A stretch of 59,704 nucleotides of DNA, filler included, from Circinaria calcarea (taxonomy: Eukaryota), in NCBI GenBank assembly GCA_051942165.1. It is 7 parts of 7 records of this genome, joined end to end, with 100 filler letters (N's around TTAATTAATTAA, not from the genome) between each part and the next. Parts side by side here need not be neighbours in the genome. Positions count along the whole stretch, not along the records: positions 42,744 to 51,178 come from JAVECS010001114.1; 6 more parts are not named here. One strand, written 5' to 3'. A model generated the notes under the pieces. It worked only from the letters and a program-made list of their open reading frames with translations. It was not told where the DNA came from and searched no databases. The translations under genes were made by a program, and so were the position numbers. Position 1 is the first letter of the stretch. Each line of letters begins with the position of its first letter. Positions 8,475 to 51,278 of the stretch are shown piece by piece.

Positions 8475-8574
8475 NNNNNNNNNNNNNNNNNNNNNNNNNN
8501 NNNNNNNNNNNNNNNNNNTTAATTAATTAANNNNNNNNNNNNNNNNNNNNNNNNNNNNNNNNNNNNNNNNNNNN
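8475..8574. other. Artificial contig spacer
   Basis: N44-TTAATTAATTAA-N44, which places stops in all six frames. Confidence 0.98.
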
Positions 8575-17020: not shown

Positions 17021-17120
17021 NNNNNNNNNNNNNNNNNNNNNNNNNNNNNNNNNNNNNNNNNNNNTTAATTAATTAANNNNNNNNNNNNNNNNNNNNNNNN
17101 NNNNNNNNNNNNNNNNNNNN
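17021..17120. other. Artificial contig spacer
   Basis: N44-TTAATTAATTAA-N44. Confidence 0.98.
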
Positions 17121-25564: not shown

Positions 25565-25664
25565 NNNNNNNNNNNNNNNNNNNNNNNNNNNNNNNNNNNN
25601 NNNNNNNNTTAATTAATTAANNNNNNNNNNNNNNNNNNNNNNNNNNNNNNNNNNNNNNNNNNNN
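25565..25664. other. Artificial contig spacer
   Basis: N44-TTAATTAATTAA-N44. Confidence 0.98.
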
Positions 25665-34107: not shown

Positions 34108-34207
34108 NNNNNNNNNNNNNNNNNNNNNNNNNNNNNNNNNNNNNNNNNNNNTTAATTAATTAANNNNNNNNNNNNNNNNNNNNNNNNNNNNNNNNNNNNN
34201 NNNNNNN
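34108..34207. other. Artificial contig spacer
   Basis: N44-TTAATTAATTAA-N44. Confidence 0.98.
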
Positions 34208-42643: not shown

Positions 42644-42743
42644 NNNNNNNNNNNNNNNNNNNNNNNNNNNNNNNNNNNNNNNNNNNNTTAATTAATTAAN
42701 NNNNNNNNNNNNNNNNNNNNNNNNNNNNNNNNNNNNNNNNNNN
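42644..42743. other. Artificial contig spacer
   Basis: N44-TTAATTAATTAA-N44. Confidence 0.98.
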
Positions 42744-44709
42744 TGAGGCATCCGTTGGATATAATGTGGACACGAAATCCTTGCCGTATCGACCACGACA
42801 GGAGAGGTCGCTGGACGATCAGCTCTTGCGAGAGCCACGGTTATACCCATTACAGGGGCAAACATCACACTCGCCACGAATAGAAACTCCAGATAGCCGC
42901 AGGTCCCACTCGCGGCAGACTTCAAACTCGAGCCTCGAAGATGAACACAACCCCTCAAACGTGCCTGCTCCATTACAATACCACCATCAGTACACAAGCG
43001 AAGCGAGTGGAATACGGGTTTTGGGCGATAGAGCATCACGAATGGCTGCTCGTCGATCACAATCTGACTCACCCTCGCCATTTTCTGCACAGGGCGACCA
43101 CCAAAGGCCGTCAAGCAAGACCACTGTCTTCGGTGGCACGCTTCCTCGTCCTTCATCGGCATATTCATCGGGCTCTGATCTCGCTCCCCGACGGCGTGAG
43201 CCTTCACCGCAACTTTCGCCAAATCGATATGCTCGTGCCACATCGTCCCAGGGCCGGCGCTCGCCAGAGTCTCGTCCACTTTCATATGTCGATTTACTCA
43301 ATGTGCCCTATCCTCAGCCTTCTCCGGCACCCGCCAACTTGGACAATTCGCTTCTCCAAACCGCAGTCGGCACAAATGCCTCACTTCTCAGTACCCGGAA
43401 GACTCTCGAAATGTACCGCGCCAATGTTAAGAAAACAAATGATCCTGCAATCCGATATGAATTTGCAGTGTTTATGATTAACGCAGCGCAAGAGGCAGCT
43501 GTCAATGAGGAAGGAGACGGCGGTCTCGATGGCAGTCAGACAGGACATGCCTCGAGCACCGAATCACAAACGCAGCTTCTGAGGGAAGCTCGTCATATCT
43601 TGCAACGGCTTTCCGACAGAAGCTATCCATTTGCACAATACTACCTTGCGGATGGATACACATCTGGCCTATTCAGCAACGGCAAAGTGGACAATGATCG
43701 CGCATATCCTTTGTTTGTCGCTGCTAGTAAACACGGGCACGCCGAGGCTGGATATCGTGCTGCTCTCTGCTACGAATTTGGCTGGGGAACACGCAAAGAT
43801 GCTCAGAAGGCCGTTCAGTACTATCGCCAATCTGCTTCTAAAAATCATCCAGGCGCAATGTTCCGGTTAGGAAACGCGTGTATCAAGGGGGATTTAGGAC
43901 TTGACAACCGGTCCCGGGAGGGTCTGAAATGGATGAAGCGAGCTGCCGAGTCGGCAGACTTCCAATACAACTCTGCACCTTACGAACTAGGTGTGCTTCA
44001 CGAAACAGGACACGGCGACGACATTTTTAAAGATGAATCGTATGCCGCCCAACTGTTTACACAGGCAGCAGACCTTGGGCATGCAGAAGCGAGCTATAGA
44101 CTTGGTGATGCGTACGAGCATGGGACGTTGAATTGTCCTAAAGATCCGGCCCTGAGCGTTCATTTTTACAACGGAGCCGCCCAGCGAGGCCATCCTATGG
44201 CCATGATGGCGCTGTGCGCATGGTACATGGTAGGCGCGGAGCCTGTTCTCGAAAAAGACGAGAACGAATCGTATGAGTGGGCGCGGAAGGCAGCCGAATA
44301 CGGTATAGCTCTCTCCCTTTCCTATTTCTGGCATTTTCAAATCTCCCCGAGCTAACACGCAAAACTTCTAACATAATGCCCAACAGGTCTTCCGAAGGCC
44401 GAGTACGCCGTCGCCTGGTTCACGGAAATGGGCATGGGCTGCCGGCGTGATCCGCTCGAAGCCAACATGTGGTACGTCCGCGCCGCCGACCACGGCGACG
44501 AGAGGGCCAAACACCGCATCGCCGCTATCCGTGCAGCCGCCTCGGGTGCATCGCCCATGCATGTTGCTGCTGCTCCGTCGGCTCCGTCTGCTCCGTGTGC
44601 GTCGCCAGACAAAGTGAACCGGAAGAAATCGAGTGCACCGGAGGCGGAGAAGGAGAAGGGGAAGGAAGACGAGGAGAAGGTGAAGGGGAGACGGTGGGGC
44701 ATATTCTGA
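42744..44709 (+). CDS. Sel1-repeat chitin synthase activator (Chs4/Skt5-like family), 5' truncated
   Basis: TLEMYRANVKK and multiple Sel1 repeats (AQYYLADGY, ASKHGHAEAGYRAALCYEFGWG, AMMALCAWYMVGAEPVL). Intron 44303-44386; ends WGIF*. Confidence 0.92.
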
Positions 44710-45709
44710 CGAAACCGTCTGGCGGGTTCTGGGGGGGAGACATTTTTGATGGGCGTTGGAAGCGCGGGAGATTGGCTTTTTGATTCTGGCACGGTCAAGG
44801 GTCTTTTGCATAGCAAAGGGGGCATTTTGTTTGGGGATGGTTGGATTGGGGGATTCTTCTGGGACATTGATGGGTTCTCATCGCTTCAGCGGCGCTTATC
44901 GACTCTCGGGGGAAAAAAAAAGAGGCAAACCGCGGAACAATGGAATGGAAATGGGAATGTGGCTGGCTTGCCCTCCTGATCCTCGGAAATCACATCACCT
45001 ACAACTACAACTACACTATTACCTAGACTAGCCATCAACTTATCCTTTTTGTCTTGCCTTTCCGTCTTCGGTCCTTGGGTCCTGCTTGTCTAGGTAGGTA
45101 GGTAGGTAGGAAAAACCCCTTTCTTCGTTTTTATTAATTTAATTTAATCGATTTAAATCAATTTAATTCAATATTAATTCAGAAAATAAAGGAAAGAAAG
45201 ATTTTGCTATTGTCTTAGGGATTATTTTTCGTTACCCAGTTCGTTATCAATTAACTAACCGTACCCGTCCTTGCTCACCTCACCTCATCCCTTCTATGTT
45301 AATGTCCATGTCCATGTATGGTAGTGGTGTATTATATTAGATTAGATGGATAGAACGAACAACATATCTACCATACCATACCTAACGTGAAAAGAAAGGA
45401 AGAAGAGGAAAGAAATTCTTGGGTGTAGGAGGAAAGGAAGGGAGGGATCTCTCTCCATTCCATTCCATTGCTACATTGCTACAGTTACAGCTACACTATA
45501 TGCTATCCCTCATATGGACCCTGACCTTCTACTCCGTGCTTAGGTAGACGGACAAGGCAGGAGAGGGAGAGGGATAGATGTTACATATAAATTGGAACTG
45601 AATATAAATGGTATTCTATTCTATTAACAATCTCCCAAAAGAAAAGTAACAAGGCCGGATAACCCCCAAAAAACCCAGCAGGTTTCCAAAGGGATTTTTA
45701 TTTCTATAT

Positions 45710-47405
45710 TCACACAAACTCCCCCGCTCTACTCTTCAACTTGGTCCATCCGCTCGTCCCCGTCCCGGTTCCTTTTCCCTCTTTCCCTTCTTTCCCACTA
45801 CCGACGACATCCACTCCTTCTCGGGCCGAAACCCCAGCAGAGCTCACCTTTGCCCCAGCGGGCGAACCGCCAGCGCCTCCCTCATCGCCCCCCTTTGCCT
45901 CTCTCCCATCCGTTCCGTCCTTCCCCATACTCGCATTCCCATCTTCCTCCCACTCACCATCCTCCAGCATCTCCCACTCGGCTCCCATGCGCTCGCTCGC
46001 CAGCATCGCCTTGACCTTCTCGATGATCCGCACGGGACTGACGAGTTTCCAGCCGCGCATGTATTCCGTGCCTTCTGCACTGGCCAGGAAACCGCGGGCG
46101 GAATTATGGGAGAAGTAGCCGATTGTAATTGGGGATTTTGACGACTCGGGGGTAGGTGCGGAAGGAGGGAGGTCCTGGTTTCTTGGCACAGCGGCAGAAT
46201 TTGCGGGAGACGATGTTGACGCTGTCCTTGTTGAAGGTGGAGGCCGGATGCTAGCAGGCGGGGAAACGAATAAAAGCCATGTGTTCCGCCCTATAGCACA
46301 AATGTCTTCCCAGGATTTGGAACAGACGTCCAGTCCTTGCGTCTTGCATACCCAAGCAATATCCCATGCCAGCAGAGTAATGGCGTCAACAAAGTATGAA
46401 TACGCAAGAGGATCTTCCTTAGCTAGAATGTGAAGGGGCTTGTCGAGGTGAAGGGGTCGAGGGCGGGGAACTGGTCGGGACGCAGGAGAAACCGAAGGAT
46501 GAATCGTTGTAGAGGAGGATGATTTGGAAAGAGGAGGGCTCGGGATAGTGGGATTCGTATAGGAAGAAAAGGGACTTGAGATTGTGGGGTAGGGATGTGA
46601 AGCGTTGGGCAAGGAGATTTCGGCAGGAAGACGGAGGGAGAGATAATGCGATGTTAGATGGAGAAGATGGGCAAGGTGAGCGATAGAAGTAGTGATTTGA
46701 GCAGGGTCTGCGTCTGACAGGATGTTGTTAGCCATATTGTACATGTACACCTGCGGGGCAAGGTGATATACTGTTGATTTCTCGAAGATCAACAATGGGA
46801 ACACCACCAATCATGTAGCTGTCTCGGCCTGCCTCGCCTTTCTGACGCTTCCGGGGTTTTAAGCCGTAGAGCTGAGCTGCTTCCTTGCACAAGAAAACTC
46901 GAGCTTCCGCCGACATCTTGTGGGTAGCTTGCCATCGGTTCTCGGATTTGGCAATCGACTTGTGGAATGGCTCGGTCGCGGTAGATTCCTGGCGCTCAAG
47001 ATCCTTCTTTGTGGATGCCAGAGCGGCGCGTCGTTGCGTGAGAAGAGATTTCCTCTTTGCGATGTCAGCCTTAATTTCCTTTACTCCTTCTCGGAGCATT
47101 TCGACGTGGCCGAGGATAGCTTGAGTGCGCTCGGTAGACTCATACTGCTCCGAACCTAGGCGTTCCACATAGAGACGGTTGGGAATAGAAGCCTCCGTGT
47201 TTCGAGGGGACTTGGGTAGTGGTCCAATACCTCCCGTGGCCTGGGCCTTCTTCACGACGTTCTCGACGTCATTCCCTAGGGTTTCCTTTTGAAGGAGGAC
47301 TCGGGCATGTTGGAGCCTTGGCTCATAGATGGCATTTCGGGCGCAAGTCGTGCAGTTAAACGGTAGTCGACTAGTTGCAGGCCTAAGGCAAATCTCACAC
47401 TCCAT
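45710..47405 (-). CDS. Atg14/Vps38 (UVRAG-like) family PI3K complex subunit
   Basis: N-terminal CxxC...CxxC (MECEICLR...FNCTTCARN), coiled coil, EARVFLCKEAAQLYGL, SHYLSLRLPAEI, LLAWDIAWVCKTQG. Intron 46771-46714. Confidence 0.85.
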
Positions 47406-48748
47406 GGTGAGGGTTCTCGTAAAGAATGGGGTGTAGCGGTTATGGGGGACGTCTGAGCTGCCATGATCTAGGCTAGATCCAGTGGAGGTCAATAAGGGAC
47501 AAAATAATGGAACCTAGAGAATGGTTGAATGAGAGAGGTCATAGTTTAAAGAGTGTTTATACGTGTAAGTACTGCGAGGAGGGATGCGGTCCCCGTGGTG
47601 GATGACTCCAGTTTCGAGGGTCAGAGGTTCGATAGAGCGGAATACGGCCTTCGACACCCACGAGACTAGCCTTATCAGAGCCCTTATCTTAGCGCCCGCA
47701 GTGGGTAGCTTCCCCCTTGTACCCTCGAGGTTGAATACGGTATATAAGATGTAAGCAACGAATGTCCGGCTACTGATGTCAAATCTGTCGAGTAAACATG
47801 AAGCTGCCATGAGATGCCGAGGAGGCAAATGGTTCGATTCACAAATGCTGGCAAAACCATCTCCACCGCACCTAGTTAGGAATGGGCTCTAGATGACATT
47901 CGGGACTTACTCAGGGCTTACTTTCATAATCTACGCGTACTGTTTCGTTGACCAGTAGTACATCTTCATCCTTCGGCTATGCCACGGTTTTCTAAGGAGC
48001 AGGCTATTCACCATTCATACGATGAGCTGCGTACATACGATAACTCGAGCTGCATTATTCTGATTAGCGATAAGGGTTTACTATAGGACTGTTGCCCTGT
48101 GTTAAACTAGGTCGTTCGATGCACCGGCCCCATACACCACGAAGGCTATCATTGGCTTACAGTCTACATAGGACAAACAAGTTCTGCCATCCCTTTATCA
48201 ACATATACCCACGGTCAGTCGAAATATACGTCTACTGCGCATCTTCTTGACAGCTTAGAAACTACCCTAGGTGCTACCAAGAGAGGATAAAAACCTAGAT
48301 AATCTATTTATCCTGTACGTGATGAAAACAAGTTCTTTGCAAGTATCTTTATTTTCCTTCTGTCTCTTCTCGTCCCTTTGGGGATCCTCTAAGGAAAACA
48401 CGAATCTGCATTCTTTCCGTAATGGTCCGCATGATTTCCAGGGATGATCTACCGGTGTTGGGGGTAAGAGGGTGACACTAGCTGGGGTTTTGGCACTGGG
48501 AGCGAGATTGGGGTGGGAGGAAATGGCAATTGAGATTGAGATTGAGGGAAGCGGGAAAGCGAGGAAGAGGAAGAGAAGGAAGATTAATGGTGTGATATAT
48601 TTTTGAATCAAGAAAAAGTGAAACATAGTTACATTGGCAAAACGTATACGACAGTACTTTCAAATATCCAGATCCATGCTCGCAGACTACATCCATCCAC
48701 AAACCCACAAACAATCCAAGCCGCATTACTACATAAAGGCGCTACCGC

Positions 48749-51178
48749 TCATTCCAGAAACGTCCATTTCCGGAGTAGTTCCTCGACGACTTGGCTCGTC
48801 TTGTCGTTGTCGGTCGGAAACCAGGGTTTTCTCTCTTCGGTGCCTCGGTCCAGCGGGGGGGGTATCGTGGCACTCTCATTCGTACTGTCATCTTTCGACC
48901 GCAACGACCGCTCTATCGTAGGGGGAGCGTTCGTAGTCACTGCCTCCTTTTCTTTGACAGTACGTGGAGACGGTGGCAACGGCGTATTCTCATCGGAGTC
49001 GCTCAACCACGACGTGGGTTTGGAACCACGTACAATGGATCTATGGGTATAAGTAGCACAGAGAAATCGGGCCGGGCTATGATTTCTAGCGTTATCGCTA
49101 GTCGATTTACGACTCTCCGGGTTAACAACAATAATTTGCGGTGGGCCGTCGACGAGAACCGCTTCTCTTCCTTTAATCCCATGAATTGTTTCGAAATCTG
49201 CCGTGGAAATAGTGTGAGAGAGCTTCGATTCTGGTACGGCGTTGATATCCAGAAGTTGGGATTGAGGTTGTCCCGATTCCAGTGTAACATTTTCGTTATC
49301 TGAGTTCCTCGTTATCACTTGGACTTTGGTCGAGCCTTCTTCAGTCTCCCTCTTGGACTTTTTAGTTTTCGTATCGTCATCCTGCTTTTCCGCTTCACCC
49401 CTGTTCCCAGGCTGGCTGCCGTCTATGGCTACGTGTTTCATTTTAACAATCTTGGGCTTAGGACGGCTTCCCCCCAAAAAGCTGAACTTCGCGCCTAGAA
49501 GTTTGTCAGCTACAACACAGACAAACCGCTTGTTCTGTGAACAGGAGAAGTGAAGGACGGCGCCACATTGCTTCTGAGAGCAGTGGCGCTACTAGGAGCT
49601 GGAGGATGGACCAATGATGAGGGGTGCCGCTTGATAACTTACCTTTCACGGGCTTCTTAGGAGGTGGAGGAGGTGGAGGATGCACATTAACCAACTTAGG
49701 AGGTTCTCTGGGGGGTACTGCTTTCTGTTCTGTTTCTGTGTCTACATCCTCCTTTGCCTTCGCAGCTGCTGCTTCTGCCTTGGCCTGAATTCGATATTCG
49801 TCGACAGACTCCTTAGTTTCTTCTTTGATACCTTCCATCATTAATGCTTCTTGGAATTCGGTAGCTCGCCGTTGAGCTTCTAGTTCTGCCTCGGCCTTTG
49901 CTGTCATATCTTTCTGCGCTACTTCTGTTCTACTGGAAGTGGTCTTGAACCTTGCCTCGATAATATTGGGCACTGCTGAAACTGGTTCGTCAAAGAGACT
50001 ATCAAACTCTGTGGCCGAGGCCGTTTTCCTTCTTCTCCCTCGCGAATAGTGCCGGCGTTCCCTCGATTCTGATATTCTTTCTCGCTCCACTAATTGAGTC
50101 GATTCCTCATCGGTCAATTCTATGTCTGGCGCATATCTAGCCACTTGAACCTTATTCCTCGCATCTTGATCGTCTAATATCTCTAATCTATCAGGGCTTA
50201 TCCTGTTGTCACTATGCTTCTGGCGGGATTTACGAGCTGCTACGGTATTCCGAGCACGTTTGACAGTGAAGACGTCTGATGGATCTTCGATTTGAATTGG
50301 CGGCAATAGCTTATCCTTCTTCTTCGCGTTGACGGCTGAAATGGAAGAGTAGCGAACTCGGTATGAGCTTCTCGATGATGTTTTCCCAGGCGAGGATTGA
50401 TTGCGAGACATAGAGGGCTCCACAACTTCAATGCTCTGGTGCATGGTGCTCTCAGTAGGAAATAGTGGGCCCCTTGTGTCAGCACCCTCATCAAGGAGAT
50501 CATCCGCGAACATCGGAGAGGTGTCCGAGCTGGGGGTGAACAACGGTGAGTCTATTGAGAAAGTTCCTCTCCCTTCCGTCGACTTCGATATTCTTGCTCG
50601 CTCCGCTAATTGATGCCATCGATTATTGGTCAATTCTACGTCTGGCGAATATCTATCTGCTTGAACCTTATTCCTCGTATCTTGATCGTCTAATATCTTT
50701 GATCTATCAGGGCTTATCCTGTTGTCACTATGCATCTGGCGGTGTTTGCGTGGGGACGAAGAACTTGCTGTCCGTAGATGGTGCGGTGCATTCTCATGTT
50801 CGTGGATGACCATTGATGAGCTCGGAAGCCGCCTTTTGGGAACAGAAAGCGCTGATTGACGATTAGTTGTGGTTTCCGCTGTAGCATCGGACATTGGTGT
50901 TGACGGGTTTGGTAGTAATCCAGAGTCGGGCCCATCCTCTTCGCTCTCAAGTCTCGCTTTCCCAAACGAATTTCTTTTTCTTTCGGTGGTCGAGCTATCC
51001 CACACTATGGCATTTTCGGCCAAGACAGGGTGTTCATGCCTCGTTCTCTTAATCTCTTTCATCTTTGTCCTCATTGCATAGTGCTGTATCTCTTCTTTTG
51101 TTAATACCCTTAGAACTATAACATATTCATCCCGTGTTTCAAATCTTTCGTTTCCTTCCGCCAAGACTTCAGGGCTTA
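48749..51178 (-). CDS. Mosaic hypothetical protein containing a cpcA/GCN4-like fragment; 5' truncated
   Basis: ORF is open from the contig edge to a GTAAGT donor at 49642. Acceptor at 49495 joins in frame to ORF 48749-49477. Contains ERFETRDEYVIVLRVLTKEEI, KRARNTVAARKSRQK and an internal direct repeat. Confidence 0.7.
50071..50742. repeat. Pair of 156-bp direct repeats (50071-50226 and 50587-50742) inside a CDS
   Basis: Offset is 516 bp (172 codons). Both copies encode HSDNRISPDR..ILDDQD.RNKVQ..RY.PD.ELT. Confidence 0.92.
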
Positions 51179-51278
51179 NNNNNNNNNNNNNNNNNNNNNN
51201 NNNNNNNNNNNNNNNNNNNNNNTTAATTAATTAANNNNNNNNNNNNNNNNNNNNNNNNNNNNNNNNNNNNNNNNNNNN
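51179..51278. other. Artificial contig spacer
   Basis: N44-TTAATTAATTAA-N44. Confidence 0.98.

Follow-up and report, generated by a model that had tools for sequence, protein, structure and literature searches.

In yeast, genomic or complementary DNA (cDNA) fragments are captured at double-strand breaks, and chimeric genes arise through the shuffling of exons or domains. The CpcA, Cpc-1 and Gcn4 proteins are basic leucine zipper (bZIP) activators of Ascomycota. In the portions of PMC13004512 that describe this family, the DNA-binding domain is C-terminal in 500 of 502 homologues, and the WxxLF motif ranks first in importance and in conservation within the central activation domain of Gcn4. 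Insertions made by fork stalling and template switching (FoSTeS) or by microhomology-mediated break-induced replication (MMBIR) are described mainly from human constitutional and cancer genomes. According to the sections of PMC5120786 that treat them, their signature consists of microhomology exceeding 4 bp, template-copied inserts hundreds of bp long and a gain in copy number. Here we describe a locus to be compared with these systems, in the lichen-forming ascomycete Circinaria calcarea. It lies on a contig of 8,435 nt, part of a metagenome-assembled genome (MAG) and placed at positions 42744-51178 of the window, the whole stretch of 59,704 nt that was analysed. Judged from its sequence, a fragment of the genome's own cpcA-like gene is copied into an unrelated gene, between two copies of a duplicated host segment.

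The host gene is read as a long minus-strand frame, 100% identical to 'MAG: hypothetical protein Q9187_005092 [Circinaria calcarea]' (P0002, 721 aa). The rearranged region is made of the following elements, given in the order in which they are read.

50733..50750, minus strand: host codons RKHRQM just upstream of copy A, identical at 14/18 positions to the final 18 nt of the insert (alignment).
50574..50732, minus strand: copy A, the first of the two 159-nt host duplicates, spanning P0002 residues 111-163 (repeat search, alignment, codon register).
50568..50573, minus strand: 6 nt, GGGAGA (residues G-R), at the 5' junction; filler or diverged sequence that matches neither copy B nor the CpcA protein.
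50217..50567, minus strand: CpcA-derived insert, 351 nt or 117 codons, P0002 residues 166-282, equivalent to P0007 residues 85-201 (tblastn, alignment, tree).
50460..50474, minus strand: RGPLF, the degenerate counterpart of WxxLF (W to R; codon AGG at 50474-50472), within the insert (alignment).
50217..50261, minus strand: bZIP basic region KRARNTVAARKSRQK, P0002 residues 268-282, with a single difference from the parent; the parental zipper would start where it ends (alignment).
50058..50216, minus strand: copy B, the second 159-nt host duplicate, spanning residues 283-335, after which the host sequence is unique (repeat search, alignment, codon register).

The repeat search finds one direct-repeat family, 50058-50234 and 50574-50750, of 177 nt at 85% identity with a spacing of 516, and pairwise alignment is concordant. 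Codon register sets the length of the host-to-host repeat at 159 nt, and its copies differ at 22 positions. The remaining 18 nt of similarity set host RKHRQM against the insert's own final codons, RKSRQK (14/18, or 17/21 counting the shared CAT). Together, 159, 6 and 351 nt add 516 nt, or 172 codons, with the frame kept. The original prediction, made from the DNA alone, had reported 156-bp direct repeats 516 bp apart: the repeat is real and its spacing correct, while the length is 159 nt and the copies are diverged. Its translation of 50567-50217 is exact, the frame is intact as it stated (open from 51178 to 49506), and the likeness it saw between insert and host codons at the junction is that counted above.

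The insert is homologous to the CpcA/Cpc-1/Gcn4 activators across all 117 residues, which cover their central activation and basic regions. A tblastn search of the whole window with two CpcA-like proteins gives 50567-50217 as its sole match, and no second CpcA-like match within the window. An exhaustive HMMER search with the 122-residue stretch retrieves CpcA/Gcn4-like bZIP proteins, 218 at E ≤ 0.001 and 49 at E ≤ 1e-10. A word-indexed search among longer proteins finds nine, the best of which, after the chimera itself, is P0007 at 80% identity. P0007 is annotated as 'MAG: hypothetical protein Q9187_000347 [Circinaria calcarea]'; it is a bZIP protein of 237 aa, encoded on another contig (40,526 nt) of the same MAG. 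It is identical to the insert at 94/117 residues and differs at 23/117. Identity of the insert to the orthologues P0008, P0009 and P0003 is 76%, 74% and 73%, respectively (85-89 of 117 residues), and falls to 41% with P0013, named 'General control protein' at NCBI.

A maximum-likelihood tree built from 12 rows over the copied region joins the insert to P0007 as its sister, with support 93/93. The two share derived residues that have no counterpart in the three closest orthologues. This placement and these shared residues indicate that the Circinaria lineage copied a gene of its own. The donor is retained, in that the full-length parent P0007 stands on a separate contig of the MAG. The segment had been predicted to be a zipper-less copy of a CpcA/Gcn4-like activation and basic region, a claim to be checked by finding its best matches. 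The 218 homologues and the 80% identity to P0007 bear this out: the top relatives are CpcA/Gcn4-like bZIP proteins, and the product of the parental gene is among them.

The basic-region signature RNTVAARKSR is kept in the insert (RNTxAARKSR in the family; N-x2-AA-x2-SR). The insert ends with ...ARKSRQK, one codon before the zipper, and host HSDNRISPDR follows. After the same ...ARKSRQK, the parent P0007 continues with KMERVEELEARILQLE / KMERVEELEARILQLEMERDHWKD, which is the leucine zipper. No leucine zipper follows the basic region of the insert; its match to Pfam bZIP_2 covers profile positions 6-22 of 54 only (E = 0.021), stops at position 22 and scores 15.3 bits, below the cut-off of 22.3 bits. 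P0007 and P0003 both pass, with 26.9 and 25.7 bits. The likeness of the insert's basic region to solved Gcn4 and C/EBP structures is weak (E = 0.7-1.1). In contrast to the CpcA/Gcn4 activators, the chimera lacks a leucine zipper, has R in place of the W of WxxLF and shows a raised substitution rate; its basic region is internal (residues 268-282 of 721) and not C-terminal. Lacking the zipper, the WxxLF motif and a DNA-binding domain at its C-terminus, the chimera is, on its primary structure, best placed as a derivative of the CpcA/Gcn4 family and not as a member.

A search with the whole host frame finds only two relatives of the host gene, P0005 and P0006, at 40-43% identity. Each has one match to the duplicated unit (E = 4e-8 to 1e-5), and neither has a match to the insert (E ≥ 0.08). 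A single unit without insert in both orthologues points to an ancestral state of one copy and no insert, hence to a gain and not a loss. The insert-free C-terminal part of the host (residues 336-721), used to look for closer relatives, retrieves the protein itself only, 1 of 7,999 candidates scored. The single-repeat, insert-free allele expected by the original prediction is thus present in both orthologues found, which are distant and not sister species. A real rearrangement, specific to the Circinaria lineage, produced by template switching and carried since as a neutral passenger is, taken as a whole, an explanation that we consider fairly probable.

As to its origin, synthesis-dependent template switching of the FoSTeS/MMBIR kind is the most likely process, and one that we favour with moderate confidence. 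A nascent strand copying the host gene would leave it after ...ACGGAA, prime on the cpcA locus and copy 351 nt. The microhomology CCGCCAGA would then bring it back to the host, 159 nt behind its point of departure, with the result that the 159-nt host segment would be copied a second time. The parental cpcA would be left intact on the other contig. Its DNA at the copied end would be expected to read ...CCGCCAGAAG, followed by the zipper codons. Insert and flank duplication would in this way come from a single event.

The layout, host-unit-filler-foreign template-unit-host, together with the retained donor and with microhomology at the return point, corresponds to the FoSTeS/MMBIR signature. 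At the 3' junction, an exact 8-nt identity (CCGCCAGA at 50742-50735, insert counterpart 50226-50219) is embedded in the 17/21 homeology. Exact identity of at least 8 nt stands beside a random junction pair in the same contig in 0.022% of 200,000 trials, a chance of about 2e-4. The 5' junction carries the 6-nt filler and no demonstrable microhomology. Microhomology-mediated template switching with duplication of the flank, as first proposed, fits these data, with a duplication of 159 nt and 8 nt at the return junction. Within what the same sections of PMC5120786 cover, the locus shares with FoSTeS/MMBIR insertions hundreds of bp taken from a distant locus, a donor that is retained, a recipient flank that is duplicated and one junction with microhomology of more than 4 bp. 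It differs from them in that the event is fixed, old and in frame in a fungal coding sequence, known from one assembly and with one junction read.

The same event and parentage could also have come about by another mechanism, either end-joining capture of cpcA DNA or cDNA at a staggered, filled-in break, or tandem duplication followed by insertion. We consider this unlikely. A 6-nt filler without demonstrable microhomology, as at the 5' junction, is a frequent trace of end joining. Moreover, cpcA relatives in metagenome loci give a single unbroken tblastn segment that spans the copied region (for example in L001, residues 57-234), so that an intronless cDNA would be indistinguishable from genomic DNA if the parent is likewise intronless there. 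These relatives come from a metagenome scan with a CpcA alignment, which gives 10 loci, all distant, with 34-66% identity on the best segment. However, a 159-nt flank duplication is not expected from simple end joining, and the 8-nt microhomology placed exactly at the return junction is what a single template switch predicts. A two-step model requires, in addition, that the insertion fall exactly at the duplication junction, whereas the divergence of flank and insert is compatible with one age. Fragment capture and domain shuffling do resemble the locus in that a piece of one gene stands inside another, in a chimeric frame. Classical domain shuffling nonetheless moves folded domains under selection; here a disordered fragment decays.

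Template switching would account for the birth of the insert; its later history is read from its substitutions. With P0008, P0009 and P0003 as outgroups, insert-specific and P0007-specific changes stand at 18:3, 20:1 and 19:3, respectively (binomial p = 0.0015, 2e-5 and 0.0009). The insert has thus changed 6-20 times faster than its parent P0007, and the branch lengths in the tree are 0.27 and 0.009, respectively. Among the 31 positions invariant in all 11 full-length relatives, four are altered in the insert: W32R, G78A, R84K and P87L. W32 is the W of WxxLF, so that WGPLF in P0007 reads RGPLF in the insert; this W is invariant in 11/11 full-length relatives. Changes are not rarer at invariant sites than at the others (4/31 versus 19/86, Fisher p = 0.31). 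They are not clustered either: a stretch of 19 residues, the longest without change, is within what permutation gives by chance (p = 0.24). The fast rate, the lost W and the even spread of changes form a pattern of relaxed constraint.

The two flank copies give dN = 0.17 and dS = 0.10-0.12 (nonsynonymous and synonymous substitutions per site), and a dN/dS of 1.4-1.7, with only 3-4 synonymous differences. Under neutrality, a lineage that has half of the flank divergence (about 0.07-0.09 per site) should, by our own arithmetic, show about 15-20% residue change; the lineage-specific change of the insert is 15-17%. This match is consistent with one event followed by drift. We infer that the insert and the duplicated flanks drifted approximately neutrally, and the insert seems to be carried along as a tolerated passenger and to work neither as a bZIP nor as an activation module.

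Repeat-induced point mutation (RIP), which leaves a C:G to T:A bias, a raised TpA/ApT and a lowered (CpA+TpG)/(ApC+GpT), was considered as a cause of the divergence and rejected. There are 13 transitions and 9 transversions, in both directions. The indices, taken over the insert and both host copies, are 0.48-0.63 for TpA/ApT and 1.35-1.60 for (CpA+TpG)/(ApC+GpT), values on the non-RIP side.

The intact frame needs no selection on the insert: about 440 host residues lie downstream and would be lost with any frameshift or stop. To keep them, an insertion must be in frame and free of stops, which explains why the fragment lies in sense orientation and why the frame is open; among insertions, coding fragments on the sense strand are the likeliest to lack stops. 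In a single-sequence AlphaFold2 model of P0002 (mean predicted local distance difference test score, pLDDT, 42.9), the insert is coil with pLDDT 32-37. The model is too poor to support a search for related folds; it gives a weak hint that the insertion site, in the weakly conserved middle part of the host gene, is disordered.

A functional chimera would read the same data otherwise: the insert would give the DUF8035 protein, as the host is classed below, nuclear targeting, a residual acidic activation or coactivator patch, or the role of a decoy for CpcA partners. The frame is intact across 516 nt, one of 16 residues is changed in the basic region KRARNTVAARKSRQK and none of 19 in an acidic stretch, and natural fusions of CpcA-like modules to other proteins exist, such as P0112. 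Yet selection on the downstream part of the host explains the intact frame, there is no zipper and so no dimerisation module, WxxLF is broken by W to R, and substitution runs 6-20 times faster than in the parent. Invariant sites are altered as often as others, and unchanged runs are no longer than chance would give. The low-confidence coil of the single-sequence model, which is weak evidence, points the same way. We judge such a function improbable. Its more specific form, also read from sequence, is in our view very improbable; there, the basic region, likely nuclear-targeting and nucleic-acid-contacting, and the acidic stretch would confer a nuclear or coactivator-binding role on the DUF8035 protein, or make it a zipper-less competitor of CpcA. 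If true, it would mean that a transcription-factor module has been caught soon after its grafting, by template switching, into an unrelated disordered protein. The original prediction of a new chimeric regulator or decoy finds no support in the accelerated change, the lost W and the even distribution of substitutions. Some residual function of the almost intact basic region may nevertheless persist.

It is hardly credible that the locus is an artefact of assembly or binning, a contig chimera of host-gene and cpcA reads or a mixture of two fungi in the lichen metagenome. The source is indeed a MAG, and its short contig of 8,435 nt breaks inside the host gene. Yet no more than 8 nt is shared at the junctions, far less than the length of an assembler k-mer, and the reading frame runs through both of them, which a chance chimera of three sources would very unlikely achieve. 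Wrongly joined reads from the two loci would leave no differences; instead, 22/159 nt separate the repeat copies, and 23/117 residues separate the insert from the parental protein, with which it shares derived residues. Removal of the insert by splicing is likewise unlikely and was set aside. The minus strand of 49900-50900 holds no GTRHGY donor, and of 44 in-frame GT..AG candidates spanning the insert, none has a good donor or is 516 nt long.

Several points weigh against a single template switch followed by neutral drift. The structure is seen on a single MAG contig, which ends 428 nt upstream of copy A, and the host comparison is limited to two distant orthologues (40-43% identity). The template switch does not account for the 6-nt filler at the 5' junction; this junction and the parental 3' microhomology are deduced from the protein and from the insert's own DNA. 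The flank dN/dS rests on just 3-4 synonymous differences. Finally, the basic region has changed at 1 of 16 residues, and the 19-residue acidic stretch (SSDTSPMFADDLLDEGADT) at none. This near-intact basic region and unchanged acidic stretch are compatible with some retained constraint, with no significant departure from a uniform distribution of changes.

With template switching and drift as the preferred explanation, the event adds a further case, probably a neutral one, to a known class of rearrangement and to chimeric-gene birth. It is a templated insertion in which the donor, the recipient, the flank duplication and one microhomology junction are all legible from the sequence. It is set within coding sequence of a lichen-forming fungus, and for such fungi few data on structural variants exist. 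The locus shows how a disordered stretch of protein can take in 172 extra codons, part of a master regulator among them, with the frame kept, and the way such a graft decays in the absence of selection. As an ordinary copying error of DNA repair or replication, known from a single MAG contig, it opens no long-standing question and is unsurprising to the specialist.

The host gene and its surroundings are described by three further features.

48749..51178, minus strand: host gene, assigned to the DUF8035 family (P0002, Q9187_005092), from the 100% protein match, the open frame and Pfam marks on orthologues.
49495..49642, minus strand: single intron of the annotated host model, 148 nt, GTAAGT...TAG, outside the rearrangement (exon/intron coordinates).
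51179..51278, no strand: artificial linker N44-TTAATTAATTAA-N44, marking the end of contig 42744-51178 (sequence).

The annotated coding sequence of the host is 51062-49643 joined to 49494-48749, and these exon/intron coordinates reproduce P0002. Upstream, the frame is open up to the contig end at 51178, hence the true N-terminus is missing; the annotated model begins at the first ATG. A conserved DUF8035-like block (SPEVLAEGNERFETRDEYVIVLRVLTKEEIQHYAMRTK) at 51062-51178, minus strand, runs into the contig end. Compared with P0005 and P0006, the NCBI model appears to be truncated at its N-terminus by roughly 100-180 residues.

The host frame carries SPEVLAEGNERFETRDEYVIVLRVLTKEEIQHYAMRTKMKEIKRT, which aligns with a conserved block of P0005 and P0006. 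Both proteins are marked PF26118 (DUF8035) in the database's precomputed Pfam annotation, and the Atlas neighbours of P0005 are DUF8035 clusters, with scores of 0.79-0.81 that serve as leads only. Our own hmmscan gives no DUF8035 match for P0001, P0002, P0005 or P0006. The domain is truncated in the window. By the precomputed Pfam marks and the Atlas neighbours, the host is assigned to the uncharacterised DUF8035 group. It resembles the DUF8035 proteins of Ascomycota in its conserved block and differs in an N-terminus cut by the contig end. In a low-confidence single-sequence model, each host copy of the duplicated segment is a helix pair (P0002 residues 120-157 and 291-335; about 50705-50592 and 50192-50058). 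If real, the duplication would have doubled a small helical element.

The window consists of seven contigs of about 8.4-8.5 kb, chained by N44-TTAATTAATTAA-N44 linkers with stops in six frames. The linkers occupy window positions 8475-8574, 17021-17120, 25565-25664, 34108-34207, 42644-42743 and 51179-51278. As they are artificial, so is any feature that crosses one.

Among the relatives of the insert, the lichen-type CpcA homologues P0003, P0020 and P0014 are predicted to have long N-terminal extensions rich in Ser, Pro and Gln and to measure 343-553 aa, against 237-268 aa for the others. These extensions may be alternative starts or translated leader regions; P0007, at 237 aa, may conversely be a short model. 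P0031, a protein of 1,700 aa with 16 matched stretches in the exhaustive search, was discarded as a low-complexity repeat protein with a chance resemblance only. P0112, a fungal protein of 814 aa from outside the window, has two successive C-terminal CpcA-like modules, each with LPPI..EDP..KRARNTLAAR.SR and a zipper. An activation-like motif, 'WFPLFPE', lies just upstream of the first module, preceded by a long unrelated N-terminal part. This architecture indicates that CpcA modules have been duplicated and fused elsewhere.

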